Position numbers and translations under genes: made by a program | Notes under the pieces: model-generated | The model's input: the letters and a program-made list of their open reading frames with translations, nothing else | What the model was told of the DNA's origin: nothing | Database searches by the model: none | Shown: positions 3,413 to 63,204 of the stretch, piece by piece | Layout: the number at the start of each line of letters is the position of its first letter | Numbering within the stretch: the first letter of the stretch is position 1 | Virus record (IMG/VR): IMGVR_UViG_3300000101_000005 | Reading direction: 5' to 3' (one strand) | DNA: 64,000 nucleotides | From: a virus | Lineage: Duplodnaviria > Caudoviricetes

Positions 3413-3489
3413 GCGGCTATAGCTCAGTTGGATAGAGCGTAGGTTTGCGGAACCTAAGGTCAGGAGTTCGAATCTCTTTAGCCGCGCCA
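3413..3489 (+). tRNA. tRNA-Arg, anticodon GCG, encoded CCA
   Basis: Acceptor GCGGCTA/TAGCCGC; D arm GCTC/GAGC; anticodon arm TAGGT-TTGCGGA-ACCTA (GCG 3447-3449); T arm AGGAG-TTCGAAT-CTCTT; ends GCCA. Confidence 0.95.
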
Positions 3490-6936: not shown

Positions 6937-8403
6937 CTAGTATACACTCACTCCATACTTTAGAGCAAACTCTTTTGCGTCCACTTTGTCGTTTACCATA
7001 GGTTTTCCTTTAATATTTAAACTTGTGTTTAATAACATAGGGCATCCTGTGGCGCTATACCACCGTCTTAGAAGCTCATACAAGCCCGTGTGTAGCTTCT
7101 TATTAACTACTTGAACTCTTGATGTACCATCTATATGCGCTATTGCAGGATACTTATTTGTATCTCTACACTTGGCGGTATACTGCATATAAGGCCCCAT
7201 TGGTCCGTCAAACAATTCCTGTGCATGTTCTTCAAGGACAACTGGTGCAAATGGTCTAAACTTCTGTCTGTGTTTAATATCATTGACCCTATCTTTTGTA
7301 TGCTCTCCTCTTGGATCAGCAAACAGACTACGATTGCCAAGAGCCCTAGGACCGTATTCAGCACGACCGTTAGCAACTCCACAGATACCGGAGGATAACA
7401 ATGCGTTAAGTGTATTCTCAACTGGATACTTTCCTTTTATATCATAGCCTAAGTAAGGTGATTTAAACTCTATGTGTTCGTTATAGTTTGAAAGAACAGC
7501 ACCTATTGCACTACCTGCGTCACTAGGATTAGGCATAATCCAAACATTATCAAACAATTCTTTTGCTTGGCCGTTTGCACTACAGTTTAATGCACAGCCT
7601 CCCATTAGCACTAAGTTTTTACTTTTACATGTATATTTGCAATACAACAGCATTTCAAGTAATGCTTGTTCATATATTAATTGTGTAGCGGCAGCAATGT
7701 CATACATGTCTTGTTCAGTAGTAAGATCAGGTCTCCAACTCTTACAACCTCTATGTAAATTTTGTTTTAGTCTAACAGTTAAGTTTTTATTATTATAATT
7801 AACGTCAATGAACTGATCCAATATGTCGTGATACAATCTTCCTTTATCTCCGTATGCAGCCATTCCCATTAAGATGTATTCATCTTCGTTAGGCTTAAGG
7901 CCAATACGTTGAGTCATTGCACTATACCAAAGTCCGATACTGTGTGGAAACTTTTGACTCCACACTTGGTACATGTCGTTGCCTTCTGCTTCCCAAATAG
8001 TTAGCGTTTCAAATTCTCCAATTGCATCAATGCATAAAACAGTAGCATTATCGTACCCACTGGTATAATAGCCAGCAGCAGCGTGACTCCTGTGATGACT
8101 AGTGTAATTGATAGGACAATCCACTCCATACCTGTCAAGATATTTTCGTATATTATTGTCTGCGAAATTCCATCCTTGGCCTGCATAAAGTTGTCGTAAA
8201 GATTTTTTAATTGGGTTTTCATACCAATGTACCTCGTTGGGCTCACCGTAATGGAGAGCATAGTTTATTAAATTTTTATCAAGATGGGGGTCATTTTTAA
8301 CGCCACTGAAACGCTCACTGTGACTTGCGAACAAAAGTTCTTTGTTCTTAAATACAGCAAGTGCTGCATCGTGACTGTTAGCTGAAATCCCCCAACTGAT
8401 CAT
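6937..8403 (-). CDS. carbamoyltransferase (NodU/CmcH family)
   Basis: HDAA, ERFSGVK, HHRSHAAAGYY, DAIGE, GGCALNCSANG, GPRALGNRS, RPFAP, LLNTSLN. Confidence 0.93.
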   Translation of the reverse strand: MISWGISANSHDAALAVFKNKELLFASHSERFSGVKNDPHLDKNLINYALHYGEPNEVHWYENPIKKSLRQLYAGQGWNFADNNIRKYLDRYGVDCPINYTSHHRSHAAAGYYTSGYDNATVLCIDAIGEFETLTIWEAEGNDMYQVWSQKFPHSIGLWYSAMTQRIGLKPNEDEYILMGMAAYGDKGRLYHDILDQFIDVNYNNKNLTVRLKQNLHRGCKSWRPDLTTEQDMYDIAAATQLIYEQALLEMLLYCKYTCKSKNLVLMGGCALNCSANGQAKELFDNVWIMPNPSDAGSAIGAVLSNYNEHIEFKSPYLGYDIKGKYPVENTLNALLSSGICGVANGRAEYGPRALGNRSLFADPRGEHTKDRVNDIKHRQKFRPFAPVVLEEHAQELFDGPMGPYMQYTAKCRDTNKYPAIAHIDGTSRVQVVNKKLHTGLYELLRRWYSATGCPMLLNTSLNIKGKPMVNDKVDAKEFALKYGVSVY

Positions 8404-31560: not shown

Positions 31561-32016
31561 TTAAATGGTTGCGTCGTCTAAACCAGCTGTTCTTAGTTTA
31601 ACGATATTAGATACTTGCCATTGTTTAATGTCTAGTCCTTTGATAATTCCTAGCCATTTATTACGTAATAATGCAAACTCGTTAATAATTTTTTCAAAGT
31701 CTACAACATCAGCTTCGCCATCTACAAATTTTTCAGCATCTCTAGAACTTAATTGACGTTGATAATTTTCAACATATTTTCTAAAGTGTGAACTACGTAA
31801 ACGGCGAAGCTCAATGTTTAAATATTCGAGTATTGCTTCGATCTCTTGTAACTGTCCAAATCTAGTTTCCACAATTGCAGGCATTTGTGCTGATGCTTTT
31901 TCAAGACGCCCAACAACATTTGTCTCTTTTTTAGCCTGTAATAATTCTGCTTCGTAGTACTGCACAGCGGCAGGTATCTTCGAAATATCTTTAGAAACTT
32001 GATCGTACCAGTTCAT
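31561..32016 (-). CDS. uvsY: UvsY-like recombination mediator
   Basis: SSRDAEKFVDGE, LLRNKWLGIIKGLD..QWQ; adjacent to uvsX. Confidence 0.7.
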   Translation of the reverse strand: MNWYDQVSKDISKIPAAVQYYEAELLQAKKETNVVGRLEKASAQMPAIVETRFGQLQEIEAILEYLNIELRRLRSSHFRKYVENYQRQLSSRDAEKFVDGEADVVDFEKIINEFALLRNKWLGIIKGLDIKQWQVSNIVKLRTAGLDDATI

Positions 32017-32286: not shown

Positions 32287-33363
32287 TTATTCAGTTGGTT
32301 GTTCTTCGTAAACTTCCTCATCGACTACTTCGACGGGAGTCGATACTACAGGTGTATTTATGATATCATCCATAATTATCTGTAGTTTATCTCCAGTCCA
32401 CTGTTTCCGATATTCTAACATAACTTCGCCAGTCGATGGACTTGTATACTCAAGTCTATTACCTGACTTTTTAAGATATCCTTTTGCTTCGAATAACTCA
32501 ATCAATCCACTATGCGGATCCATGCCTGTTTCATATGGTATTTCAACTTGCACACTTTCAAACGGTTTATTGTAACGTGTTTTCATTACTTTACACGCCG
32601 CTCTAATACCATGTACTTGTGAAGTTTTATTACCGTCTGCATCTACTTTAAGTTTAAGTTTCTTAATAGCTACAACAATACTAGAAGCATATACAAACCC
32701 TTGTCCACCGCTGATCTTATCGTCTGGATCAAACATATCTTGTGATGCATATGTGTGGTTAGTACATACCATACCTACGTTATAACTACCAATCATGTTA
32801 ACTGTGTTACGAACAAGTGCAGTCAATGCCTTAGGCTTACGACCCATATCACCTTTCATATCACCTTTTTGGAACTGGTCAACGTCTGTAGGTGTTAGTA
32901 ACATACCTAACGAATCAATTACAAATAATACTTTAGGACGTTCTTCTTCTGCCATATCACGATATTCTTTCATAAATTCTGATACTGTTCTAGCAACATC
33001 ATCAATCATGCTCATGTTAAGTTTAAGAAGTTTTTCTTCTGAAGTATCTACGTCAAGTGCTTGTAGCCACGCTTCGTCAAGTGCGTTCTCTGAGTCAACT
33101 AATACTACAAAGATGCCTTGTTCCTGTGCAGCCTTTACAATATTTGCTGAACAGAAGTAACTCTTACCACTACCTGATTCACCTGCAAACACCGTTACCT
33201 TACCAAGAGGAACACCTTTATTAAAGTCGCCACTTACAAGATAGTTTAGTGCAAAGTTTCCTGTGCTGACCCAATCAGTTGGATCATTGAAGCCAATACC
33301 AAGGCCGTCAATGCTCTTAGTGATTGTCTTTCTGAATTTACTTATGTCAAATGCTTTTGCCAT
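32287..33363 (-). CDS. uvsX: UvsX/RecA-like recombinase
   Basis: GESGSGKS, VDSE, IDSLG, TNHTY, SGG.G. Confidence 0.95.
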   Translation of the reverse strand: MAKAFDISKFRKTITKSIDGLGIGFNDPTDWVSTGNFALNYLVSGDFNKGVPLGKVTVFAGESGSGKSYFCSANIVKAAQEQGIFVVLVDSENALDEAWLQALDVDTSEEKLLKLNMSMIDDVARTVSEFMKEYRDMAEEERPKVLFVIDSLGMLLTPTDVDQFQKGDMKGDMGRKPKALTALVRNTVNMIGSYNVGMVCTNHTYASQDMFDPDDKISGGQGFVYASSIVVAIKKLKLKVDADGNKTSQVHGIRAACKVMKTRYNKPFESVQVEIPYETGMDPHSGLIELFEAKGYLKKSGNRLEYTSPSTGEVMLEYRKQWTGDKLQIIMDDIINTPVVSTPVEVVDEEVYEEQPTE

Positions 33364-33455: not shown

Positions 33456-34469
33456 TTAACTAGCGTTTCTGCTTCTAATCATTGCAAGAATATCTTGCGC
33501 TCTATTAGAACCATCGCCTTCACTTGCCGCAGCCGCTGGTGCTGTTGCAGTTGCCGCCGCTGGAGCCGCTTCTGCTACTGGTGCTGCCGGAGCCGCTTCA
33601 GGTGCAGGAGTTGCTGCTGGTGCTGGTGTTGCTGGTGTTGATGGAGTATATGCCTTGTTAGGATCTCCAGTACGTGACGCCATACCTGCTGGCTTAAAGT
33701 ACTGACCCCAACGGTCCATATCATATGCCTCACCGTCTACTGACGCTTCGAACATCTCTTTCATAACCTTCAATGCAACTTCATCGGGTTTCTTTGGAAG
33801 GAAATCTGACATGTTGTAAAGACCATGCGTTTCGATCGCTGCCTTTTCAGTATCACTTAATGCACGTTCTTTACGTGACCAAGATGATGTAGAATAGTCT
33901 GCATAGCCACCTTTAGAAGTTTTCTTAACTCTAAAGTCAACGCCACGCATATAGTCTGTTGGCAGTTCTTCAAGTTCAGGATCCATTAATGCACCTTTAA
34001 TGATCTGGAAGATCTGTGGTCCAATAATAAATCTACGGATTGGGTTTTCCGGAGAACTTTCTTCGTTTAACGGGTCTTCAGTAACAAACCCTTGGAATAC
34101 ATATGAACGTTTTTTCCAATACTTACGTCCCATATCTTCTAAAGATTTATCTTTAAACCATGGTCGAACTTCTGTTAAGATCGGACATGGTGTTCCGTCG
34201 TTATACATTTCCATACATGGAACTTGTACAATTACCTGACGTGAGTCAGTGTCGCCTTTTACTCCAGCAAACGGAAGTTTAATCATTGCACGTTCTGCCC
34301 AAAAGAACGTATTAGATTGATCGCTGTCAGGTAAGAAACGAATTACTGCTTCTTTGCCTTCTTGCATATTCCAATGTGGGTAAATTGCGTTGTCTCCACC
34401 GGAAGAATTTCCAGTGTTACGATTGTTGGACTCTTGTAGTTTAGCCCTTATTTCTGCGAGTGATGCCAT
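33456..34469 (-). CDS. gp32: single-stranded DNA-binding protein (gp32-like)
   Basis: AVIRFLP, CPI, YWKKRSY, FRVKK....GYADYSTS; Ala/Pro-rich tail. Confidence 0.88.
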   Translation of the reverse strand: MASLAEIRAKLQESNNRNTGNSSGGDNAIYPHWNMQEGKEAVIRFLPDSDQSNTFFWAERAMIKLPFAGVKGDTDSRQVIVQVPCMEMYNDGTPCPILTEVRPWFKDKSLEDMGRKYWKKRSYVFQGFVTEDPLNEESSPENPIRRFIIGPQIFQIIKGALMDPELEELPTDYMRGVDFRVKKTSKGGYADYSTSSWSRKERALSDTEKAAIETHGLYNMSDFLPKKPDEVALKVMKEMFEASVDGEAYDMDRWGQYFKPAGMASRTGDPNKAYTPSTPATPAPAATPAPEAAPAAPVAEAAPAAATATAPAAAASEGDGSNRAQDILAMIRSRNAS

Positions 34470-34526
34470 TTGTGCCTCCTATAGCCTTGTTATATGTTTT
34501 CACTTTCATGCCTAAGCATACGTATT

Positions 34527-34555
34527 ATTATATGCTCTTTTATTTAGCCCGTCAA
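34527..34555 (-). promoter_or_regulatory. sigma70 promoter with an embedded TAAATA late motif (gp32/uvsX)
   Basis: TTGACG-17 bp-TATAAT; TAAATA at 34541-34546. Confidence 0.8.
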
Positions 34556-34589
34556 CTGTTATTTTAACTAATTGTGGTTTCATTCAGCC

Positions 34590-34618
34590 AAAAAGAAAGG
34601 AGACCGCAGCCTCCTTCC
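34590..34618 (-). terminator. intrinsic terminator after pqqA
   Basis: GGAAGGAG-GCTGCGGT-CTCCTTTC then TTTTT. Confidence 0.75.
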
Positions 34619-34632
34619 GTAAAACTTGTACG

Positions 34633-34704
34633 TTACTTGTTCATTACGTACATTGTAACTTCAAAACCAAAACGCATTTCTGTGTATGAAGGTTTAGTCC
34701 ACAT
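34633..34704 (-). CDS. pqqA: pyrroloquinoline quinone precursor peptide PqqA
   Basis: MWTKPSYTEMRFGFEVTMYVMNK (23 aa) with ExxxY core; AAAGGAGA RBS 6 nt upstream. Confidence 0.92.
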   Translation of the reverse strand: MWTKPSYTEMRFGFEVTMYVMNK

Positions 34705-34783
34705 TGTCATTCTCCTTTAGTCTTAGGTTGAAACATGTAAACAGTTCCTAGGAGAGCTAAAAGCAAGTCCTAGTTGAGTTACG

Positions 34784-35008
34784 TTAAAGTGCCTTGTGCA
34801 ATTGAGCAACTAGCTTTGCTTTAGTCAGCCTTCTATCTAATTCAATGCCGTTATCTCTGCCTAATTCTTCTAACTTAACCTTTGTCATTTTTGATAACTC
34901 AGCTTTAGTTACTTTCTTAGCTTTTGCTGGGGCCTTTTCTTTCACTTCGTCCTTTAGTACCAAAGGTTCTACTGGTGAAGTGAACAGCTTTTTAATCCAG
35001 TTAAACAT
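34784..35008 (-). CDS. small protein with Rho-N/HeH-like nucleic-acid-binding domain
   Basis: LSKMTKVKLEELGRDNGIELDRRLTKAKLVAQL; TAAATA at 35031-35036, GGAG RBS. Confidence 0.6.
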   Translation of the reverse strand: MFNWIKKLFTSPVEPLVLKDEVKEKAPAKAKKVTKAELSKMTKVKLEELGRDNGIELDRRLTKAKLVAQLHKAL

Positions 35009-35042
35009 ATTCTTCTCCGTTAATGAGTATTATTTAAGTCTT

Positions 35043-37424
35043 TTAGTAAGCGCCAGCTAAGGTTTTGATTCTTTCGAGTTCTTCGAGTTCTTCTGCCCCT
35101 TGCTCTTGTGCCGGTGCCATTCGTTCTACCATCTTACGAGCAACTTGTCCTGCATGTTCGCCGAACTTCTTGTCTACCATAGTAGCAACGCCTTCTGGAC
35201 CTTTTGGAAATGTGCCACTATTTTTATCGTACATACTTACAATAAATTGTGCTACTTCGTTAATATCATATGACTTACCGTCTACTTTGAATTCTTTTTT
35301 GCCTGCTTTGATTGCTTTGTCTCTCTCACCTGAGAACTTATTTCCTTCGCCAAAATCTGGCTCATCTTGTTTTTCAATATGATTGCCTTCGTCATCAAAG
35401 TCTGTGTCAACCATATCAATTGCAAACATAGCATCAGCTGCTTCATACTTGCCTACTTTAATAGCAGCTTTAACTTTGTCTTTTGGCATTGTTAACTTTT
35501 GATCTTCATCTGTAAAGTCACCTAAAATTTCTTCAGCACCAATCAACGCATCACTTACTCTACCTTCTTGTTGCGTTCCTTCGTGTTGTTTATGATCTGC
35601 ATTATCGTACATTTCTTGTGCGTCCTCCTGACAAGCTGCCATTAACTCGTCCATGTCTTGCATTTCAAGATCTATGTCAGGGTCAAAACCTAATTTACTG
35701 TTACCATCCATTTGGCAGTCTAGTGATATTGATTTAGGATCAACTATGATGTTTGCTGGACCATCTTCGTTTTCAATTTTTGCTTTATACGATACAGTGC
35801 AAGGTGTCATTTCGCCATCATCGCCTGTTCCATCCCATTCAAACTCGCCTTCGAACTCGTCTGGCATAAAGCCTTCCATTGGTGGCTCAGATTGATCAGC
35901 ACTTACTGCTGGTTCATCTGCCATATCACCAAAGTCTAATGATTCTAATTGCTCAGGTGCATTTTCTTCAACCCATGCTTTAACTAATGGGCGAGCATCT
36001 CCGTTAGGATCTTCTTTTGCCTTCATTTTAATATCGTTAAACAGTCTGTTGTCTTCGATAATACCTTTTAAACTTTGAATAGCATTTGTGCCATCTACGC
36101 CTACTGGAAAGTCTTGGTTTACTAATTCATTTAGACTTGCAACTGCCTCTTTAATTTCTTCGTCGCTACCTGTTGTAAGAGGTGAATCTTCACCTAGTGC
36201 CATTGCCCAATTTTCAAATGCTGCAAACGGATCACTTGCTTCGTCCATATCATGTATGCCATTACCATTGTTATCAACCCAATGACTACCATTTTCATCG
36301 TGTGAGTCATGCTCACAATCAGTTGTAGGTTTGTGCATTACATCATCACAATCTTTACAGTGATATTTGTCTGATTCGTTTTTTGTCATTTCGACTATGT
36401 CGTCATAGCCTACAATTTCATCTTCTTTCATTAGTCTATATAGTACTGGAAATACTGATGTTAAATCTTCTTTGAAATTTCTAATAGTGAATTGATCTTT
36501 AAACTGTTCCATTACATCATCTGGTACTTCCATTGCCTCTGGTGTCTGGAAACCTTCTACGTATGATTCATAGTGAGGTTGTTTAGCTATTTTTGCAATT
36601 CTTTCTCTTAAACTATCAAGCTGGCCTTTGCTACGTTCAACAACTGAATTTGTGTCGGAGTTCATTAAGTCGTTACGTACAACATAGCCTGTGAAACTTT
36701 TTAATTGTGCAATTTCTTCACTCATTTTAATAATGCTTTCACCAATTGCATCGTATGGAGCACCACCATTTGCAACGTGTCTTTGCATAGCTCTTGCGCC
36801 TGCTAAGTGAATAAAAGGATATTTAAATCTTTCACCTTGTGAGTTTTCAACAAATAAAGCAGCAATATTTCTTGATCTATCACCTGGCTTCATTTCTGTA
36901 TCATCAGCAAGTGTTTTACTATGCTTAATGATTAATCTTGTGTCTTCCAGTTTTTGGAAGCTCTGTTTTTTAGTCCCGTATAAGGTGCTCTCGTTCATTT
37001 TATTCTCTCCGACTGGTTTTACTATAGTATCACTATCCGCTTGTGGGTTTGAGTATTGACTCAGGAATGCATAATCCCTTTGGTCTAGATTGTCTTTAGC
37101 AATGTCTCTAGTATCAAATGCTAGTAGTCGACGCTTACTAAACTTTCTTAATTCTTTTAGAAATCCGTACCAATTGTCTTTTTGTGGATCGTCCATGCCT
37201 TCAGTAATACCATTTGAAAAGTATACTTTCATTGAATTTGGTTCAGCAAGGCTAATACTCACGTGTCCAATATTCTTATCGCCTTCATTATAATCAAAGT
37301 CAAAGAATCTGGCTTGCTCCGGGTTGATAGTAATTGACCCAGCGTCATCTCCTAATTTTAAACCTTTAAATCTACTTCTAATTTTATAGAAGAGATCGGT
37401 TGCTATGTTGTTAGTTGCGTCCAT
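35043..37424 (-). CDS. large acidic hypothetical (probable head-associated) protein
   Basis: Start MDATN by TAAATA-CTTAT-ATG; follows terL. Confidence 0.7.
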   Translation of the reverse strand: MDATNNIATDLFYKIRSRFKGLKLGDDAGSITINPEQARFFDFDYNEGDKNIGHVSISLAEPNSMKVYFSNGITEGMDDPQKDNWYGFLKELRKFSKRRLLAFDTRDIAKDNLDQRDYAFLSQYSNPQADSDTIVKPVGENKMNESTLYGTKKQSFQKLEDTRLIIKHSKTLADDTEMKPGDRSRNIAALFVENSQGERFKYPFIHLAGARAMQRHVANGGAPYDAIGESIIKMSEEIAQLKSFTGYVVRNDLMNSDTNSVVERSKGQLDSLRERIAKIAKQPHYESYVEGFQTPEAMEVPDDVMEQFKDQFTIRNFKEDLTSVFPVLYRLMKEDEIVGYDDIVEMTKNESDKYHCKDCDDVMHKPTTDCEHDSHDENGSHWVDNNGNGIHDMDEASDPFAAFENWAMALGEDSPLTTGSDEEIKEAVASLNELVNQDFPVGVDGTNAIQSLKGIIEDNRLFNDIKMKAKEDPNGDARPLVKAWVEENAPEQLESLDFGDMADEPAVSADQSEPPMEGFMPDEFEGEFEWDGTGDDGEMTPCTVSYKAKIENEDGPANIIVDPKSISLDCQMDGNSKLGFDPDIDLEMQDMDELMAACQEDAQEMYDNADHKQHEGTQQEGRVSDALIGAEEILGDFTDEDQKLTMPKDKVKAAIKVGKYEAADAMFAIDMVDTDFDDEGNHIEKQDEPDFGEGNKFSGERDKAIKAGKKEFKVDGKSYDINEVAQFIVSMYDKNSGTFPKGPEGVATMVDKKFGEHAGQVARKMVERMAPAQEQGAEELEELERIKTLAGAY

Positions 37425-37429
37425 ATAAG

Positions 37430-37435
37430 TATTTA
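37430..37435 (-). promoter_or_regulatory. late-type promoter TAAATA-N5-ATG
   Basis: TAAATA-CTTAT-ATG(37424). Confidence 0.7.
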
Positions 37436-39025
37436 TCAAAATCCTGTACTTACGAAGATCGGCATTGGGAACTGATCTTCTGTCATTCTTTCTGTCATTT
37501 TGTCGTATATTTTAGGATCCCAGTCAGATAATACGTTGGCCATACGTACAATTAATAATGTTGCAGCCACTAAATCGTCATGTTCGCCTGTTTTTGCACC
37601 GTACCCAACACCGTGTGCTACGAATGTTTTTAGCTCTGATATAAGCGGTTTACTGTGTATTTTCATCTTATTTTTTTCTAATAAATTTTTAAATCCGCTA
37701 CATGCAGTAATCTTTGTTTTGTGTGTTGTGTTAAATCCTTTTCTATAACGTCTAACATGTCCTTTTCTCATAGGCTCACTTAAGAATAATCCGCTAAAGT
37801 TTTCTTCACCTATGTCTGCAATAACAACTAGTGCTGCTTCACCAATTGTATTATTCTCTACACTATAATATATTGTAGGAGTTGCATTTCCACCTGTTGC
37901 ACATTCTGTTTGAATGTACTGTAAAATTTCTCTTAATGTTCTTACTTGCTGTTGTATTGGAGTTAAGTTATGTCTCCATTCTCCTACTTGTTCCATACTA
38001 GGCATTTCAAATATTTGAATAGCACCATAGTCGCCGCCTGTACCTAAACTTGGATCCATACTTACTAGGTATGTTGCTTTAGGATTAATTTTTTTATACC
38101 AACGTGTTTGTCCAGTATTCATAATAGGCTCTGAGCCTTCTAGTTCTGCTAACTTAACACTATTAATAAGTGTTTCATCAAAGATTAAGAATTCACAATC
38201 AAACTCACGTCTAAAACGTTCGTCACCGATCTTTGCTTTTTCTTCTGCTGCCCAGGCATCATCTCTATCTGGATGATCAACCCATGGAGCAAAATAAGGA
38301 AAGAATCCGTTAGTACCTACGCCCATATCGTTACCGTGATCGTCAAACTTTTTATTTGCTTCTGTCCAAATCATAGCAAACTGATCTTCATCTGAGTTTG
38401 GTGTACTTGTAACAATAGCTTTACCACCTGTTGACAGTGTAGGAGAAAGTGCAGTCCAAAACTCTTTGGCTTTCTCTGGCGGTTGCACAAACGCAAACTC
38501 ATCACAGTATATTAATGAAAGTGATTTACCACGTCCAGTATCTTCTGTTGTTGTAGTTGCTTGTATTCTACTACCGTTATCAAACTCAATCGTGTTTCTG
38601 TTATATGTATAGATACCAGCACGAACAAAGTCAGGCAATGTTTCATATCCATATCTAAATCTATTCATGATGTCTTGCGCACCAGTATATTTGTGTGCAG
38701 CAATTAGCACCTGCGATTCAGGTGTAAACATTGTATACCATAATAGATATCCAGCAGCACAGGTCGTCTTACCCATCTGTCTAGGTAACATAGCAACACA
38801 ATATCTATTTTCTGCGTATGCTTGAATTAGTTCTCGTTGAAATCCATAAGGCTCAAACTTCATTGAACCTTTTACAGGGTGTTGAATGGTTAGAAAGTTT
38901 TCACAAAAGTATAATGGGCCCGTGATAGGATCCATACAAGCCTCTAAGTGCTTGACTTCTTCTAATGTAAATTTATTTTTGCTGTGGGCCTTCTTTATCT
39001 GAACGCCATCTAAACTCTTTGCCAT
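37436..39025 (-). CDS. gp17: terminase large subunit
   Basis: PRQMGKT, IYCDEFAF, TSTPN, SMDPS.G.G.D, HDDLVAA. Confidence 0.96.
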   Translation of the reverse strand: MAKSLDGVQIKKAHSKNKFTLEEVKHLEACMDPITGPLYFCENFLTIQHPVKGSMKFEPYGFQRELIQAYAENRYCVAMLPRQMGKTTCAAGYLLWYTMFTPESQVLIAAHKYTGAQDIMNRFRYGYETLPDFVRAGIYTYNRNTIEFDNGSRIQATTTTEDTGRGKSLSLIYCDEFAFVQPPEKAKEFWTALSPTLSTGGKAIVTSTPNSDEDQFAMIWTEANKKFDDHGNDMGVGTNGFFPYFAPWVDHPDRDDAWAAEEKAKIGDERFRREFDCEFLIFDETLINSVKLAELEGSEPIMNTGQTRWYKKINPKATYLVSMDPSLGTGGDYGAIQIFEMPSMEQVGEWRHNLTPIQQQVRTLREILQYIQTECATGGNATPTIYYSVENNTIGEAALVVIADIGEENFSGLFLSEPMRKGHVRRYRKGFNTTHKTKITACSGFKNLLEKNKMKIHSKPLISELKTFVAHGVGYGAKTGEHDDLVAATLLIVRMANVLSDWDPKIYDKMTERMTEDQFPMPIFVSTGF

Positions 39026-54669: not shown

Positions 54670-57189
54670 TTATACTATACGCAAATTAGTTATAGTAACG
54701 CCACCGCTTGTTGCAAATGGCTGATCTGAGTTATATTTGTTATATAAAATCTTACCTGCTGACCCCATAATGCTAGTAGTATATGCATTATAATCAGTAG
54801 ATGAGCTTGTTGTATACATTGTTGCTGGTGAGTTTCCTTCTACCTTTTGTTTAAGTTGTGCAGGTGTTAATGTAGGATCTACTTGTAAGTTTAATGCTCC
54901 TACTCCACATACTTGCGGACTTGCCATACTTGTGCCGCTAATAGATTGCTGGCCCCAACTACCGTCTAATTTATATGCTGCTGGACCGCCAATTTCTGAT
55001 GTGTTTGAACATGCACTAATAATATTTGTTCCAGGTGCCCATACAGTTACAGCAGGGCCTTTCATGCTGTCTGGCTTTGTTACATCTTGATTGTTAAGAA
55101 TTCTACTATCAATATTGCCTACGTTAAATGCTCCTGTTGCATATGGCGAAGGCGGTCTATGATAATTGTATGTTCCGGCAGTAAATGTAACAGTATTATT
55201 ATAGTCTGCTCCTGCCGCAACATCAACTTTATAATAATCATTACCTGCTGCAATACAAACATGTATACCATCATTAATCATATCTGCAACTTCAGCATCA
55301 ACGTATGCTACTTGGACAGGAATTTTCCATCTCGTTCCTACGTATGGTACAACACCTACGTTTGCCCATACCTGTTGAATAGTAGTATAGTCAGTTCCGT
55401 AAGTCCATGCTGCTCCTCTGTAGTTTCCAGATACTGGAGTTTCTGTATTAGCAATGTTAGTTCCGTATCCCCAACTCATGTTAACAATAGTTGGTCTTTT
55501 AACTTTTGTAATCGGATCAATAGGTTTTTTGTTGTGCCAGCTTCTAATACAATCAAATGAATTTACAATACTAATACCATTATCAGGATCTGCTGTGCCT
55601 TCAAGCCCTCCTAATTTTTGTGAATATATTCTTGCACCTTTTGCCCAACCAAAGGTTTTACCTGCAACTGTTCCTGTGCAGTGTGTTCCGTGCCCGTGCA
55701 AGTCTGTATAAAAAGTTGTATCTTGTGTTCCTGTTACAGTACTTTCTTCGTACCAGTCAATTTGCTGTAGTCTTGAACTTGATGTATTTGAAACATATCC
55801 TGACGATCCTGCTACAAATGGATTTCCTATATCGCCGTCTGGGAAAATACTTTGTAAAACATCAATGTCAATTTTTTCAATTACATCTTTAATATGTGTG
55901 TTAAACAATCCATAACCTAACGGATTTAGAGCTTGTACACCTGCTGGAGTACGTGCAGAGTCAGCCCATTCAGGAGCTAGACTGCCACCGTCCCATAAAC
56001 TTGTATATTCAAACATTGCAAAGTTTAGTAGATATAAGTATTCTTTTACTGCTACAGGAAATGTATCGGCATCTGTTTTCCAGTTAGGTGCACCACTGCT
56101 TGCCGCATCCCATATATTGTTATCTTCTGCTTCTTTCATTGCAAGGAACATTGGACCTGTTGCCCAGTCTGAATCGAAGCTAGGAAACATTTTTAATTCT
56201 CTTGCTTCGAGTCCATACTGATGTATTGTATGAAATACATGTTCTATTACTTCTGTTATATCGTTGTTGCCAGTACCTGATCTTACATACCAAACCATAT
56301 CGTCAACAGCATGGCTATCTAAAAATCCTTGATAACCGCTATAACTAGCAATGCCACCGTCAGTTAACCAATTAGGTGAGTAATTAGCACCAGTGCCGAA
56401 ACCAACTCGTTGTGCTGCTGGAGTTCCTGCATGCCACGTACCTGTATCGCCTCTTAGGTTTTCGATAAGTTTTTTTTGCTTTTCAGTGTTTGTTGTTTTA
56501 CGTGGAGTTAGTAATAGCTCAACTGTTCTTGCAACTTTTTTTGCAAACTCGCTATGCACAGTTGTTGCTCCGCCTACTGCTCCTGCAACTACAATTTTAA
56601 GTCCGTGTACATTAATACTTCTATCAAACACGGCGCCATTGGTACTATCTGTAACTAATGGACCTGCAGCATAATGATCTGGTGCTACAAAATTTAATGT
56701 TTCCCATTCAGGGTGTCCACCTTCAATTCCGCTATCTTGAATAACAACATCAACCCCTGTACCATCTAGTGGATACAAATAAGGATCTGTTATTGATGTA
56801 ATTGTCTGTTCGCCAGACGGTGTACTACCGTTGCCATAATTTTCTGTTAAACTTTGACACCGTTTAAGTGCCCAGTTGTCAAGATTACCAGCACTACCAG
56901 AACCTCTAAAAAAGTTTCCTGCTTGTGAAGCTCGCAAACTTATTTGAACATCGTCACGTTCTTCAATAGGAATTTCAACAGCTAAAACTCTATCATCGTT
57001 TCTTAAATCTTCTGCTTCTGCGTCTGATAACATGAAATGAGTTGATACTCTAGACGCTTCACGAGGATTTGCAATTGTAACTTTTCTTGTTGGAATTGTA
57101 TCTGAACCTAGTGCTGAAACCATCTCTGCATCGAGTGCAGCAAGATCAACTCCGGGGTTTACTGTAACAATATATTCTCTGTCAGCCAT
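54670..57189 (-). CDS. S8 subtilisin-like serine protease with a large insertion
   Basis: VVIQDSG (Asp), HGHGTHCTG (His), AAGND, GTSMASP (Ser). Confidence 0.92.
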   Translation of the reverse strand: MADREYIVTVNPGVDLAALDAEMVSALGSDTIPTRKVTIANPREASRVSTHFMLSDAEAEDLRNDDRVLAVEIPIEERDDVQISLRASQAGNFFRGSGSAGNLDNWALKRCQSLTENYGNGSTPSGEQTITSITDPYLYPLDGTGVDVVIQDSGIEGGHPEWETLNFVAPDHYAAGPLVTDSTNGAVFDRSINVHGLKIVVAGAVGGATTVHSEFAKKVARTVELLLTPRKTTNTEKQKKLIENLRGDTGTWHAGTPAAQRVGFGTGANYSPNWLTDGGIASYSGYQGFLDSHAVDDMVWYVRSGTGNNDITEVIEHVFHTIHQYGLEARELKMFPSFDSDWATGPMFLAMKEAEDNNIWDAASSGAPNWKTDADTFPVAVKEYLYLLNFAMFEYTSLWDGGSLAPEWADSARTPAGVQALNPLGYGLFNTHIKDVIEKIDIDVLQSIFPDGDIGNPFVAGSSGYVSNTSSSRLQQIDWYEESTVTGTQDTTFYTDLHGHGTHCTGTVAGKTFGWAKGARIYSQKLGGLEGTADPDNGISIVNSFDCIRSWHNKKPIDPITKVKRPTIVNMSWGYGTNIANTETPVSGNYRGAAWTYGTDYTTIQQVWANVGVVPYVGTRWKIPVQVAYVDAEVADMINDGIHVCIAAGNDYYKVDVAAGADYNNTVTFTAGTYNYHRPPSPYATGAFNVGNIDSRILNNQDVTKPDSMKGPAVTVWAPGTNIISACSNTSEIGGPAAYKLDGSWGQQSISGTSMASPQVCGVGALNLQVDPTLTPAQLKQKVEGNSPATMYTTSSSTDYNAYTTSIMGSAGKILYNKYNSDQPFATSGGVTITNLRIV

Positions 57190-57198
57190 GCTTTATAC

Positions 57199-58926
57199 CT
57201 ATACCAAGCTCGCCCAAGCACCATTTTCGTATACCTGTGCTTTGTTCAACGTAGTGTCATATACCATATCACCGTTTGCAGGTGTTAGTGCATTTTTCTG
57301 TGTTGTTGTAAAGCTAGGCAGTCTAAATGGAGCACCGGTAACTCTTACACCGTCTTGTGTATCTAAAACTAGTGTTGAACTACTTGTAATTTGAGGTGTG
57401 CCAGTATCGGTCTGTGCAATAGTTTTTACTGATAATGTATCATTTACTGTTAAATTCTGTGTTGTATGATTAGTTGTTGTAAAGTCTGTTACTGAAAATT
57501 GTGCTGCTGTAAGCAAATTGTTTACAGTTAAATCGTTTTCAACTGTTAGATCACTTTGCATTAACACACCTGGAGTAAAGTTTATTCCTGAACTATCACT
57601 AGTGTCAATGTTCGAACCTGTAAATACAAAGTTACCAACTTCAGCTGCTGTTGCACCACCTGTTGCTGTACCACTTGACACATACGCTGAAAATCCTGTA
57701 CCGTTTACAGTTGTTGATAAAGCACTGTCAGAGTATAAAGCAAACTCTAATGTGCTAGTAACGTTTGCATAATATTCATTACCATTAAGCTGTGTCATTC
57801 CGTTGACACCTGCAATTGTTACAGGTTGTCCTTCGTAAAAACCGTGTGCAGAACTTGTACTAATTACAACTGGATTTGCCTGTGTTGCTGCGGCAATAGT
57901 TGCAGTTACAGAACCACTACCAACTGCATCTGATGCAGGTGACCATTGCGCACCGTCCCATTTAAGTACTTGGTTAGTACTTGGTGAACTTCCTGATACA
58001 TCTGAAAGTGTTGTAATTGATGTTGCTGTTAAATTTTGTAATGCACTATCTGCTTTAGTACCTTGAGCTGATGTTGCAGCATCTGTAATACCATAACCAG
58101 CAAGTGTTGTTGCATTGTTTGCTAGTTTTGTCCATGCACCTGCATGAGCAAAGTACCCAGCACCTGTAGCATGAACATGTGCAAACATTCCATGATACGT
58201 TGTAGCACTAGGTAAGTCTCCTTCTGTTGCAAATACATTTGCAAAGTAAACTTTGCCTGTTGTAGTAATATCATTACTACCCATAGCTAAAGTGCCACTA
58301 ACTGTTAAACCGTTTAATACCGGAGGTGCATATGTAAACACACCTGTAGTATTATCGTAACTAACTGCGCCATCGCCTGCCGCAGTACCTTCTGCACCAA
58401 CTGATATACTTGACCTAACTGCTGATTGATCTAATCCAGCTGCTGGTGCTGCTGCATTAATCCATGCTGCACCATTCCATTTTAATACTTGATCAGTACT
58501 CGGAGTTGTAATAGTTACGTTTGTTAAATCTTGTAAGTTATCTGGGATAGCAGGATAACCTAATACCGGTTGTACCCATTGATTACTATCACCATCGTTA
58601 ATATAGACATACAGTGTACCATTACTGCTATTAAACCAAATTGTACCTGCTGTTGGTGTGCTAGGTGCTGTTTGGCTTACTTCAATACTGCCACCACCAC
58701 CACCTACTCCAGCCGCTGTTGCTTTTGCAGCAAATATAGAGTTAGTAACGTTGGTTAAATCGCCTCTTGCTAATGGTAAACCGCCTACAACTATACTGTC
58801 AAACAGTCTAATCGTATTGTTGTCCTTATCATAGAATATTTCTCCACGTGCGCCGGACTTTCTATCCAGAAATTCTGCATCTCTTGGTACTACGCGAAGG
58901 TTATTAATGATAGGTAAATTGGCCAT
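57199..58926 (-). CDS. fibre-like virion protein
   Basis: Two QVLKW(N/D)G repeats, YDNTTGVFT, ATQANP...HG...GMTQLNG domain; TAAATA at 58956-58961. Confidence 0.7.
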   Translation of the reverse strand: MANLPIINNLRVVPRDAEFLDRKSGARGEIFYDKDNNTIRLFDSIVVGGLPLARGDLTNVTNSIFAAKATAAGVGGGGGSIEVSQTAPSTPTAGTIWFNSSNGTLYVYINDGDSNQWVQPVLGYPAIPDNLQDLTNVTITTPSTDQVLKWNGAAWINAAAPAAGLDQSAVRSSISVGAEGTAAGDGAVSYDNTTGVFTYAPPVLNGLTVSGTLAMGSNDITTTGKVYFANVFATEGDLPSATTYHGMFAHVHATGAGYFAHAGAWTKLANNATTLAGYGITDAATSAQGTKADSALQNLTATSITTLSDVSGSSPSTNQVLKWDGAQWSPASDAVGSGSVTATIAAATQANPVVISTSSAHGFYEGQPVTIAGVNGMTQLNGNEYYANVTSTLEFALYSDSALSTTVNGTGFSAYVSSGTATGGATAAEVGNFVFTGSNIDTSDSSGINFTPGVLMQSDLTVENDLTVNNLLTAAQFSVTDFTTTNHTTQNLTVNDTLSVKTIAQTDTGTPQITSSSTLVLDTQDGVRVTGAPFRLPSFTTTQKNALTPANGDMVYDTTLNKAQVYENGAWASLV

Positions 58927-59590: not shown

Positions 59591-60216
59591 TGAAAATAAT
59601 CCCGACGTTTCCAACGGATCTGTTTGAATTTCATAATACCGAGATTGACAACGAACAATTAATCCCCGAACTTGAAAAATACGCAGAGATTGTTAAGTCT
59701 GGCGAAACAATAAGTTCGATGAGAAACTTACACGACAAAGAAGAATTACAACCTTTATTTTCTTGGATTAATAAATGTATTGAAGAAGTTAGAATTTATC
59801 AAAAATATGATTGCGAAGGATTTGCAATTACTAGCAGTTGGTTTAATAGAGCGTTACCACGAGACGGAATGAGATTACATTATCACAGGCATTCAATGAG
59901 TTTTCTTAGTGGTGTGTATTATGTAACTGACGGTAGTCCTACAGTATTTGAAGATCCAGTTAAACATAGAACTGAAGCACAGCTAGAAGTATTAAGACAC
60001 GAACACGCTCCGCATCAGTTTGTAGAAGCAGATCCTGGCAAATTAATATTATTTCCTAGTTGGCTGTTTCATAGTGCAACACCGCATTATGGAAACAAAG
60101 ATAGATATATTATTAGTTTTAATGTAATGCCCACAGGAGCAATTAATTACAATCTTGCAACAGACTCTGTTGCAAACATAGAAATTCATAATAAGGAAAA
60201 GACATATGATCAATAA
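59590..60216 (+). CDS. putative 2OG-Fe(II) oxygenase (TIGR02466-like)
   Basis: SWFN, HYHRHSMSFLSGVYY, LFPSWLFHS, RYIISFN. Confidence 0.82.
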   Translation: MKIIPTFPTDLFEFHNTEIDNEQLIPELEKYAEIVKSGETISSMRNLHDKEELQPLFSWINKCIEEVRIYQKYDCEGFAITSSWFNRALPRDGMRLHYHRHSMSFLSGVYYVTDGSPTVFEDPVKHRTEAQLEVLRHEHAPHQFVEADPGKLILFPSWLFHSATPHYGNKDRYIISFNVMPTGAINYNLATDSVANIEIHNKEKTYDQ

Positions 60217-61690
60217 GTTGCTTGTACTAGGTGGTGGCAATGCTGGACTAATGACTGCACTATATCATAAAAAGTCTATTGACAACCTAGACATTACACT
60301 TATCAAATCTGACAAGATTGGTACAATTGGTGTTGGTGAAGGTAGCACTGAACATTGGAAAAGATTCGCTGAGGCAGTTGGTATTACACTAACTGATCTT
60401 GTAAAAGAATGTGGTGCAACTATTAAGATTGGTATTAAGTTTGAGGATTGGCATGGTGACAAAACCAGTTACTATCACAGTTTAGCAGAGCCATATGTAT
60501 ACGCGGATGCATACACAGGCGATGCACATACGCTGATGAGATTAATTTCAGAAGGTGTTGACTCTGAATCGTTGCATTGGGATTTACCTATGCAAGGATG
60601 GTTAAGTCCACCATTTGAAGATTACTATCAGTTTCATTTTGATAGCGAAAAACTAAATGCATTTTTAGAAAAAAGATGTATCGAAGCAGGCATTAACGTT
60701 ATAACTACAGAAGTTGTAGATGTTAACATTGACGCCGGAGGCTTTGTAGAATCTGTAGTTGATGTAGAAAGACGAACACATACCGCAGACTTCTTTATTG
60801 ACAGTAGTGGATTTAAAAGAGTTATTGCCAGTAAACTAGGTGCTGAGTGGGTAGACTGGTCATCATTTTTACCTATGAATAGTGCTATTGCTTTTCAAAC
60901 ATCACGTCAAGAAGATATACCACCTTACACACTTTCTAGAGCATTGAGTGCTGGCTGGCATTGGCGCAGTCCTGTACAAGAACGTTTTGGTAATGGCTAT
61001 GTGTTTAGTGATCAATTTATTTCTGAGGACGAAGCTATTAGAGAAATACAAACATTATTTTCAGATACAATTAATATAGGTAGAAAAATTAACTTTGTTT
61101 CAGGTAAAGTTGATAAGTTTTGGATTAAGAATTGTGTAAGTATTGGACTTAGCAGTAACTTTGTAGAGCCATTAGAAGCAAGTAGTATTTCAACAACCAT
61201 ACAACAGTCAAGAGCATTAGTTGCCTCACTAGCATCTTGGGAACGTAGTGATCAAGCAACTATAAACGAATACAATAGAATATTTGATGATTGTTTAAGC
61301 AATGTACTAGACTTTATTCAATTGCATTACTTTACACAAAGAGAAGATTCAAAGTTTTGGCGCTGGTGTAAAAATGAAATAGAATATACAGATTTTAACA
61401 AACAGAATATAGAAAATTTTAAAAAACAATTTGTAAATCAAATATTATTACCCGAAGATGGGTCGCATGGAAGTTTTAGAATTTACGATAATCTAAATTG
61501 GATACAAGTTATGCATGGATTACGTATGTTTGATATTCCTAGCATTAAAAAATTATACAACGAGCGTTACAGTAAACATCGTGCTGAAGACACAGCACAA
61601 CTATCTTCATTGCCGCAAAGTCCTACTAAAGATTTTGTAAAATGTAGAGAAGCAGTAAACATGTTAAAAGGAATATCTTACTCGCTATGA
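60206..61690 (+). CDS. flavin-dependent (tryptophan halogenase family) protein 1
   Basis: GGGNAG, GVGEG, ATIKIGIKF, FIDSSGF, WHWRSP, FVEPLEAS. Confidence 0.9.
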   Translation: MINKLLVLGGGNAGLMTALYHKKSIDNLDITLIKSDKIGTIGVGEGSTEHWKRFAEAVGITLTDLVKECGATIKIGIKFEDWHGDKTSYYHSLAEPYVYADAYTGDAHTLMRLISEGVDSESLHWDLPMQGWLSPPFEDYYQFHFDSEKLNAFLEKRCIEAGINVITTEVVDVNIDAGGFVESVVDVERRTHTADFFIDSSGFKRVIASKLGAEWVDWSSFLPMNSAIAFQTSRQEDIPPYTLSRALSAGWHWRSPVQERFGNGYVFSDQFISEDEAIREIQTLFSDTINIGRKINFVSGKVDKFWIKNCVSIGLSSNFVEPLEASSISTTIQQSRALVASLASWERSDQATINEYNRIFDDCLSNVLDFIQLHYFTQREDSKFWRWCKNEIEYTDFNKQNIENFKKQFVNQILLPEDGSHGSFRIYDNLNWIQVMHGLRMFDIPSIKKLYNERYSKHRAEDTAQLSSLPQSPTKDFVKCREAVNMLKGISYSL

Positions 61691-63204
61691 TGATACAATC
61701 TCTAACAGTATTAGGAGGCGGAACAAGCGGATTAGTTTCTGCAATTATGATTAAGAAATCTTTCCCACATATTGATCTTACACTATTGCGTTCATCTAAA
61801 ATTGGAATTATTGGTGTAGGTGAAGGATCAACCGAACACTGGCTAAGTTTTTTAAAGCATTCTGATATTGATGTGCCGACACTTGTAAGAGAAACAGGTG
61901 CTACATTTAAAGTTGGTATTAAGTTTACTAACTGGAATGGTGATGGAAAACATTATTATCATAGTTTAACAGATGCATACGGATCATTAGATCCAAAAAA
62001 CGAAATGCCAATAACATTCATGAGAATGATTGCTGAACAGTGGGATCCTTTAGACACTGCATGGAAACGTAACACACGAGATAGTTCACATGCTGAACCA
62101 TTACACGACACAGTAGCACAATATCATTTTGATACACACAAATTAAATGAGTTTCTTGTTAAAGAATGTAAAAATCGAGATATTAAAGTTTTAGATGTTG
62201 AAATACAAGATGTAATTTTAGATGATACAGGTAACGTTAAAGAGCTAGTTGATGAACAAGGTACAAAACATGCTAGTGAGTTCTTTATTGACTGTAGTGG
62301 ATTTAATAGAGTAATATCAAGTAAACTAGGACAAAAATGGGTAGACTGTTCTCATCAACTTCCTATGAATAGTGCTATTGCATTTCCAACAGCTAGAACT
62401 GAAGACATTCCTTCTTGGACAGAAGCAACTGCATTAAGCAGTGGGTGGTGTTGGAGAATTCCAACACAAGACAGATATGGTAACGGCTATGTGTTTAGTG
62501 ATAATTTTATTAACGAAACACAAGCGTATGACGAAGTATCGCAGTATTATGAAAAACATCTAGGTATCAAAGATTTACAAATAGGAAAACGTGTAAAGTT
62601 TAGTGCTGGGTATGTTAACGAATTTTGGACTAAAAACTGTATGTCATTAGGTCTTAGTGGAATGTTTGTAGAACCATTAGAAGCAAGTTCAATTGGATCA
62701 ACTATTCAGCAAACGTTTTTATTGTTAGGCTCACTTGCATACTATCGAAAAGATTCATCTAGTGCATTAGTAAAAACATTTAACACTAGAATGAATAAAG
62801 TTGCTACTAATATTATTGATTTTATTCAAATTCACTATGTTACTAAAAGAAACGACACTGAGTTTTGGAAGTGGTGTAATCAAAATATTGAACTAACTGA
62901 TTTTAATAAAGATACTCTCGATACATTCAAGGAAGCATTTGTAAGTCCAAGCTATTTTTCAGAGCATCAATTAATGTTTAGTTTTTTTAATTGGTTACAA
63001 GTTATGCACGGATTACATATGTTTGACTATGATTCTGTTAAATCTTTCTGGGAAAAGAACTTTGCTAGTCTACACAACGAACAGATTAAAAGAGTTATCC
63101 ATGAAGGTACTAATACCCGTTCTGACGAAGGTAAAATTTATACCCATAGAGAAGCACTAAACTTACTAAAGGAGAGATATCTTGAAACTACAATCAACCT
63201 CTAA
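61687..63204 (+). CDS. flavin-dependent (tryptophan halogenase family) protein 2
   Basis: GGGTSG, GVGEG, ATFKVGIKF, FIDCSGF, WCWRIP, FVEPLEAS. Confidence 0.92.
   Translation: MMIQSLTVLGGGTSGLVSAIMIKKSFPHIDLTLLRSSKIGIIGVGEGSTEHWLSFLKHSDIDVPTLVRETGATFKVGIKFTNWNGDGKHYYHSLTDAYGSLDPKNEMPITFMRMIAEQWDPLDTAWKRNTRDSSHAEPLHDTVAQYHFDTHKLNEFLVKECKNRDIKVLDVEIQDVILDDTGNVKELVDEQGTKHASEFFIDCSGFNRVISSKLGQKWVDCSHQLPMNSAIAFPTARTEDIPSWTEATALSSGWCWRIPTQDRYGNGYVFSDNFINETQAYDEVSQYYEKHLGIKDLQIGKRVKFSAGYVNEFWTKNCMSLGLSGMFVEPLEASSIGSTIQQTFLLLGSLAYYRKDSSSALVKTFNTRMNKVATNIIDFIQIHYVTKRNDTEFWKWCNQNIELTDFNKDTLDTFKEAFVSPSYFSEHQLMFSFFNWLQVMHGLHMFDYDSVKSFWEKNFASLHNEQIKRVIHEGTNTRSDEGKIYTHREALNLLKERYLETTINL

Follow-up and report, generated by a model that had tools for sequence, protein, structure and literature searches.

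PqqA in an uncultured marine jumbo phage: a candidate auxiliary metabolic gene shared with many phages of methylotrophs

Described PqqA systems and the carrier phage

A viral copy of PqqA, the precursor peptide of the cofactor PQQ, was reported in 2020 for population VP_266 of Lake Baikal, a T4-like Methylophilaceae virus, and the proposal made for it was that it boosts methanol oxidation as an auxiliary metabolic gene (Coutinho et al. 2020, Microbiome 8:163, PMC7678222). The Baikal viruses come from freshwater and were reported with viral methanol dehydrogenase and radical-SAM genes (PMC7678222), whereas the phage described here is marine. It is represented by a stretch of 64,000 nucleotides, which is called the window throughout, and it resembles VP_266 in carrying pqqA, in being T4-like, in its predicted Methylophilaceae host and in its GC content near 35%. 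In contrast to the Baikal viruses, a scan of the large window ORFs gave no PQQ alcohol dehydrogenase, and neither PqqE nor PqqC nor such a dehydrogenase was found in a 96%-complete relative. Since viral PqqA is already published (PMC7678222) and is widespread in phages, the window is one more example of a reported phenomenon, and the value of the window alone is therefore modest. What is added here is a marine jumbo-phage lineage with variably placed pqqA, a natural strain without pqqA, an apparently conserved leader hairpin, and a terminator that appears to pre-exist the gene.

Cultured Methylophilales phages (Venkman, P19250A, MEP301, MEP401/402 and Melnitz) likewise possess an intact PqqA ORF with a ribosome site, and no other pqq genes were seen beside it in the 2.5-kb flanks inspected. 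These phages are small sipho-, podo- and myoviruses unrelated to the window jumbo phage, and pqqA is antisense to its neighbors in Venkman, MEP301 and a spring-water podovirus, whereas it is co-directional in the window phage. The published descriptions of Melnitz, MEP301 and MEP401/402 contain no mention of pqqA. The orphan pqqA genes of Methylophilaceae chromosomes also encode 23 residues, with an identical stretch of 12 residues at the C-terminus, a similar ribosome-site region, and a location away from pqqBCDE. The phage copy differs from them by its viral flanks, by a leader hairpin and a CTGTTTACAT block, and by Ser6-Tyr7 in the peptide leader, where the host has Ala-Ala. A more distant parallel is cyanophage psbA (D1 protein), through which a phage carries a fast-turnover component of the host energy system, and for which expression and benefit have been demonstrated. 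The analogy to phage pqqA would be one of mechanism, in that only the fast-turnover or consumable part is phage-borne and the rest comes from the host; the two genes are unrelated in sequence, and their products differ in kind, PqqA being a peptide substrate that is sacrificed and D1 a structural subunit.

OM43 and related Methylophilaceae are major methanol consumers in coastal seas and lakes, and gain their energy via a PQQ enzyme. One PqqA is consumed per PQQ made, and the cofactor itself is recycled rather than consumed. The xoxF gene is the most transcribed gene of OM43 (PMC5120137). The leader of PqqA binds PqqD, and its C-terminal part binds PqqE (PMC10906245).

The jumbo phage to which the window belongs is marine, uncultured and a member of the T4 superfamily. 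The large terminase, TerL (37436-39025), shares 52% identity with that of Pseudomonas phage PA5oct, has lower similarity to the Atu_ph07 and RaK2 types, and is 58-60% identical to two IMG/VR jumbo contigs, one of which is 356 kb long and rated 96% complete. No DNA-level match of the window was found among the records of the phage collection; window DNA is present in 18 marine or seawater studies, in a total of 20 sequencing runs that include six metatranscriptomes. Pfam and PHROG assignments place pqqA between a virion structural gene (35043-37439), in the vicinity of TerL, and a set of recombination genes that encode the gp32 single-strand DNA-binding protein (33456-34469; Pfam), which is the next gene after the pqqA unit, a RecA/UvsX protein (32287-33363) and a UvsY-like protein (31561-32016). 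Genes for a tail sheath and a gp15-like protein lie further along the window. Viral genes are thus found on both sides of pqqA, with no assembly artefact.

Other window genes include two adjacent members of the tryptophan halogenase family (60206-63204, plus strand; 354 and 326 bits) and a 488-aa carbamoyltransferase (6937-8403, minus strand; N- and C-terminal domains with 158 and 169 bits) that adjoins a DnaB-like helicase gene. After the gene of an 839-aa subtilase-family protein (54670-57189, minus strand) comes one for a protein of 575 aa that include a ubiquitin-E1 FCCH-like domain (57199-58926, minus strand; 33.8 bits), and a tRNA-Arg gene with anticodon GCG (3413-3489, plus strand) lies on the strand opposite to most genes.

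The pqqA gene, its leader and its transcription unit

The pqqA coding sequence occupies positions 34633-34704 on the minus strand and consists of 23 codons and a TAA stop, as delineated from the ORF list, the PF08042 and TIGR02107 profiles, and the start and length of homologs. The listed ORF that spans it (34633-34710, minus strand) has 25 residues when counted from its first ATG (34710). However, the GGAG core (34715-34712) of the ribosome-binding site AAAGGAGA (34711-34719, minus strand; read from the sequence) is situated 1 nt ahead of ATG 34710 and 7 nt ahead of ATG 34704, and because of this spacing we assign the product as the 23-aa form that starts at ATG 34704. Both the span and the ribosome site agree with those given by an earlier reading of the sequence alone. 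The Met-Trp-Thr start of the phage peptide is the same in every homolog recovered, and its start and length are common to the phage and host homologs.

The peptide matches Pfam family PF08042 with 45.7 bits (cut-off 21.1) over profile positions 1-19 of 19, and the NCBIfam equivalog TIGR02107 with 46.7 bits (cut-off 20) over positions 1-21 of 21; both scores are more than twice the respective cut-offs of these curated PqqA models. The Glu-x-x-x-Tyr core of the 23-residue peptide is formed by Glu15 and Tyr19, which we take to be the residues fused into PQQ. By its full-model scores, a length within the short range of the family (about 20-40 residues), the Glu/Tyr pair and a translatable start, the predicted peptide at 34704-34633 (minus strand) is confirmed as a full-length, true PqqA, the identity first proposed for it. 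PHROGs contains no family matching the peptide.

Nucleotide homology to the host pqqA loci starts approximately 12-20 nt 5' of the ATG and so includes the ribosome site, and the ribosome site and start codon have the same arrangement in all inspected phage pqqA copies. Further upstream, a leader stem-loop is predicted by the single-sequence fold at 34748-34773 (minus strand), with the arms CTAGGA (34773-34768) and TCCTAG (34753-34748). This hairpin, already pointed out in the sequence-only reading, is retained in two related jumbo phages, L028 and L102: in the alignment all six pairs are kept, both sides are changed at three of the six, and none is broken. The alignment, with three sequences only, is suggestive of a hairpin conserved through compensatory changes. 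Directly after the hairpin lies a conserved leader block, CTGTTTACAT (34735-34744, minus strand), defined by the alignment of the same three phages. Both the block and the hairpin are absent from the pqqA leaders of the host loci compared. RNAalifold, applied to 34700-34745 (minus strand), pairs the conserved ACAT, the 3' part of the CTGTTTACAT block, with the pqqA start-codon region; the pairing contains one pair with both sides changed among the three relatives, and could mask the start codon.

An upstream gene of 74 aa (34784-35008, minus strand), an ORF whose product has a basic, helix-rich C-terminus, is probably the leading cistron of the pqqA transcript. Its previous description as Rho-N-like is not borne out, as the product matches no Pfam family, with Rho_N unmatched at E<=1, and its weak PHROG matches are restricted to the helix-rich C-terminal part. 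A TTAAATA motif (35031-35037, minus strand) that resembles a T4 late promoter by consensus is located 28 nt before the start of this gene. What the sequence-only reading called a late promoter is this motif, which differs by a single base from the T4 TATAAATA. Of the 54 minus-strand genes, 10 have TAAATA in the 60 nt before them, with about 1.8 expected from its density on the strand, and TTAAATA is a plausible candidate, by consensus match only, for the T4-late-type promoter of the 74-aa/pqqA unit. Five minus-strand genes (starts 5094, 31525, 39025, 40763 and 43196) have TAAATA exactly 11 nt before the start codon, a spacing that suggests very short or leaderless late transcripts. A sigma-70-type promoter was looked for between the 74-aa gene and pqqA, and none was found. 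Because pqqA has no promoter of its own by this search and TTAAATA precedes the 74-aa gene, pqqA is most likely the second cistron on a short late-type transcript led by the 74-aa gene. The downstream limit of the unit is marked by the strong sigma-70-like promoter of gp32 (34527-34555, minus strand; TTGACG, 17 nt, TATAAT; 11 of 12 matches).

The transcript would end at an intrinsic terminator (34595-34618, minus strand) with a 10-pair stem, a 4-nt loop and a T-run, on which the folds agree. A 418-base contig from an RNA library (run X15, record 5) matches 34365-34614 and 34783-34926 with approximately 99% identity, and 24 unrelated bases replace positions 34615-34782; this form was seen in one run only. 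Its comparison with the window delimits a present/absent segment of 168 bases (34615-34782, minus strand) that comprises the leader and pqqA, and leader homology to L028 and L102 begins at about the same left edge. The variant without pqqA keeps the terminator minus the first four stem bases, so the terminator serves the 74-aa gene with or without pqqA, which is evidence that it pre-exists pqqA. Thus, the terminator described in the sequence-only reading is real (34618-34595) but probably not pqqA's own and, with no promoter of its own found either, pqqA no longer qualifies as the self-contained unit of that reading. Since a strain of the same phage exists without the gene, pqqA is dispensable in nature.

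Metatranscriptome contigs cover the pqqA coding sequence and its neighbors, and give neither strand nor level. When contig depths are added up across 34613-34813, the coding sequence comes out tens of times deeper than its flanks in marine DNA runs and marine RNA runs alike, with many short high-depth contig pieces at 34633-34683. The presence of pqqA contigs with many different flanks at high depth indicates that pqqA-like sequences are very abundant in the communities and transcript pools. RNA-run depth over pqqA was rejected as a sign of phage expression, since it belongs largely to other pqqA loci, with loose ends at 34633.

Host pathway and occurrence of pqqA in phages

The tail of the peptide, which had been likened to the Methylophilaceae type, is confirmed as such, and its back-translated pattern matches almost exclusively such entries: at least 120 bacterial contigs were retrieved, nearly all titled Methylophilaceae, Methylotenera, Methylophilus, Methylobacillus, Ca. 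Methylopumilus or OM43. A true PqqA with this tail also upholds the earlier pointer to a PQQ-making host. At the nucleotide level, the phage gene is about 86-88% identical to host pqqA over approximately 85 bases, ending at the stop codon, and its identity to the host copies (84-88%) picks out no single host genus; the assignment to OM43 follows from the marine distribution and from the host range of the cultured pqqA phages. The carrier phage most likely infects Methylophilaceae, namely OM43-type methanol oxidizers.

No pqqB-E genes are present in the window (tblastn best E = 0.075), as had been noted. Each of four complete Methylophilaceae chromosomes has one pqqC, one pqqE, XoxF-type PQQ dehydrogenases and 3-5 scattered copies of pqqA, and pqqB lies near host pqqA in 14 of 119 Methylophilaceae loci among the matches listed. 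Because the host copies are dispersed and few of them have pqqB nearby, a lone pqqA is the normal host arrangement; the adjacency to pqqBCDE known from the classical operon is missing from phage pqqA and is not defining for the host family. In the 96%-complete 356-kb relative, no PqqC and no PQQ alcohol dehydrogenase were found, and the search for PqqE returned only a generic radical-SAM match (22 bits vs a cut-off of 381). As PqqE, PqqC and PQQ dehydrogenase were found neither in this relative nor in the window (the dehydrogenase among the large ORFs scanned) and the hosts have them, phage pqqA must depend on host enzymes. The gene therefore has host homologs and a rest of the pathway encoded by the host, as expected for an auxiliary metabolic gene.

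A tblastn search of the peptide against 50,697 phage records identified intact pqqA in Venkman, P19250A, MEP301, MEP401, MEP402, four Melnitz isolates and the spring-water podovirus. An intact orphan pqqA is thus present in every cultured Methylophilales phage lineage returned by the search, and in at least five unrelated phage types. In the GenBank records of the cultured phages the gene is mostly unannotated: nothing is annotated there in Venkman, P19250A, MEP301 and MEP402, and a hypothetical protein is called opposite the intact pqqA in Melnitz-1 (L003, 2461-2556) and in podovirus MW202481 (L006, 2067-2195). The only other match, 'Acinetobacter phage MD-2021a' (L007, CAKLQF020000010.1), was discarded since it looks like a bacterial contig; its 144 kb contain ppk and, together with a dipeptidase, the complete pqqABCDE operon.

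IMG/VR was scanned with two back-translated DNA patterns, one fixing the tail and one fixing the leader, so that each set is unbiased for the other half only and the counts are lower bounds. The two scans yielded at least 149 contigs with pqqA; among the matches listed, all ORFs are intact and no pqqB-E genes were found in the flanks. Only 2 of the 120 contigs among the matches listed in the first scan resemble the window phage, which implies that many unrelated phages carry pqqA.

Five members of the jumbo group possess pqqA, in three different genome positions. In L028 and L102, whose gp32 proteins are 81% and 75% identical to that of the window phage, the gene likewise lies between the structural gene and gp32, with different small genes beside it (none in L028, two other small ORFs in L102), and the 74-aa gene is absent from both. 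The 356-kb contig has a single pqqA approximately 16 kb from gp32, and a 98-kb contig of the same group has a single pqqA approximately 65 kb away. The gene is retained across phages of this group with gp32 only 70-81% identical.

Selection, proposed role and competing explanations

In the 129 distinct viral sequences recovered with the leader-only pattern among the matches listed, Glu15, Thr17 and Tyr19 are invariant, and the codons of the invariant residues vary freely (Tyr19 is encoded by TAC in 70 and by TAT in 59; Thr17 by four codons). Replacements in this set, among the matches listed, are few and conservative, and are found at positions 16, 18 and 20-23. The leader positions 6, 7 and 8, assessed in the tail-pattern set among the matches listed, are more variable in viruses than in hosts (entropy 1.77 vs 0.52, 0.49 vs 0, and 0.34 vs 0, respectively), and the Tyr7 of the window is shared by 6 of 129 viral and 0 of 107 host sequences among the matches listed. 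The variable viral leader and Tyr7 could reflect relaxed or altered PqqD recognition; many viral copies of PqqA do not differ from one or the other of the two commonest host peptides. Judging by these substitution patterns, phage pqqA is under selection.

The window pqqA is, in our assessment, probably a functional phage copy of host pqqA, an auxiliary metabolic gene by which a Methylophilaceae jumbo phage feeds precursor to host PqqBCDE. The gene would be transcribed together with the 74-aa gene from the late-type TAAATA promoter, up to the terminator at 34618-34595. Host PqqD would bind the N-terminal leader of the peptide, host PqqE would cross-link Glu15 to Tyr19, and PQQ would be finished by host peptidases, PqqB and PqqC. 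Because one PqqA is destroyed per PQQ, the phage copy would maintain the precursor supply once host transcription fails, and the PQQ-dependent XoxF methanol dehydrogenase, the main energy source of the host, would be sustained until lysis. The selection pattern and the host gene content fit an auxiliary metabolic gene; its expression, processing and benefit we infer, and a need for new PQQ synthesis within one infection cycle is assumed. The strain without pqqA, the recycling of PQQ, the variable leader and the absence of an own promoter in our search speak against such a role.

Several of these points would suit a neutral or nearly neutral passenger, that is, a tiny host gene captured by illegitimate recombination and drifting without benefit: pqqA has only 72 bases, its position differs among the related jumbo phages, it lies in a region that gains and loses small genes, and a strain without it exists. 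We consider this explanation unlikely, since the viral copies (at least 149) are intact and, among the matches listed, their core residues are invariant amid abundant synonymous change. Moreover, the gene is kept across gp32 proteins of 70-81% identity and in at least five unrelated phage types, the leader hairpin appears to be kept through compensatory changes, and a nucleotide identity of approximately 86-88% to the host copies is not that of a recent capture.

The greater variability of positions 6-8 in viral than in host copies, at the expected PqqD contact (PMC10906245), and the absence of the window Tyr7 from 107 host sequences among the matches listed would be in line with a decoy or modulator, which binds PqqD/PqqE as a poor or dead-end substrate or yields a non-PQQ product and so reprograms the synthesis. 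Such a function is improbable, as neither the reactive Glu and Tyr nor the spacer Thr is ever replaced among the matches listed, whereas an inhibitor would tolerate or favor their loss; aromatic residues at position 7 are normal across the wider family (Phe in the Acinetobacter copy), and many viral copies equal the two commonest host peptides. That the reactive residues are so strictly conserved argues against a decoy and a passenger alike.

It is very improbable that the segment is not a gene but an attP-like stretch of recombination or integration homology to host pqqA loci, even though many unrelated phages share this short host-like segment and some small Methylophilales phages carry recombinases beside pqqA. 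The match to the host copies covers approximately 85 bases at an identity of only about 86-88% and goes no further than the stop codon, the substitutions cluster at synonymous sites, a sign that selection acts on the peptide rather than the DNA, the ribosome site and start codon are always kept, and the carrier is a T4-like jumbo phage.

Finally, the zero-mismatch contigs 34491-34678 and 34649-34817 of run X6 (records 26 and 27) overlap inside pqqA and run on for 142 bases on the gp32 side and for 34 bases within the 74-aa gene, and contigs from other studies give the same joins (X1, 34334-34681 and 34707-35380, records 2 and 7; X2, 34578-34799, record 13). As contigs from independent marine DNA metagenomes span both junctions without mismatch, the pqqA segment is not a chimera, and the host-contig origin that the sequence-only reading named as its possible refutation falls away. 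A bacterial pqqA piece joined to phage DNA is accordingly the explanation to which we give practically no credence, although short-read assembly graphs do break inside the coding sequence, since it is a high-copy repeat common to hosts and other phages; pqqA lies in the same interval in L028 and L102, and the one match that is a true bacterial contig, MD-2021a, has pqqBCDE beside pqqA.

Returning to the auxiliary metabolic gene, it is possible, if somewhat doubtful, that pqqA is a hallmark of essentially all Methylophilaceae phages, from 35-kb podoviruses to 356-kb jumbo phages, which would have acquired it repeatedly as the methylotroph counterpart of psbA. Gene callers overlook pqqA, and searching by a 23-codon rule would give many viral contigs a host-linking marker. 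If pqqA is a hallmark gene, it would serve as a sequence marker that assigns uncultured viruses to methylotroph hosts, and the phage lineages would control it through evolved leader-peptide variants of their own and a conserved 5' RNA hairpin; PQQ precursor supply would then limit the energy metabolism of infected cells. If phages indeed top up the consumable part of PQQ, infection would alter methanol turnover, and precursor supply would be exposed as a bottleneck.
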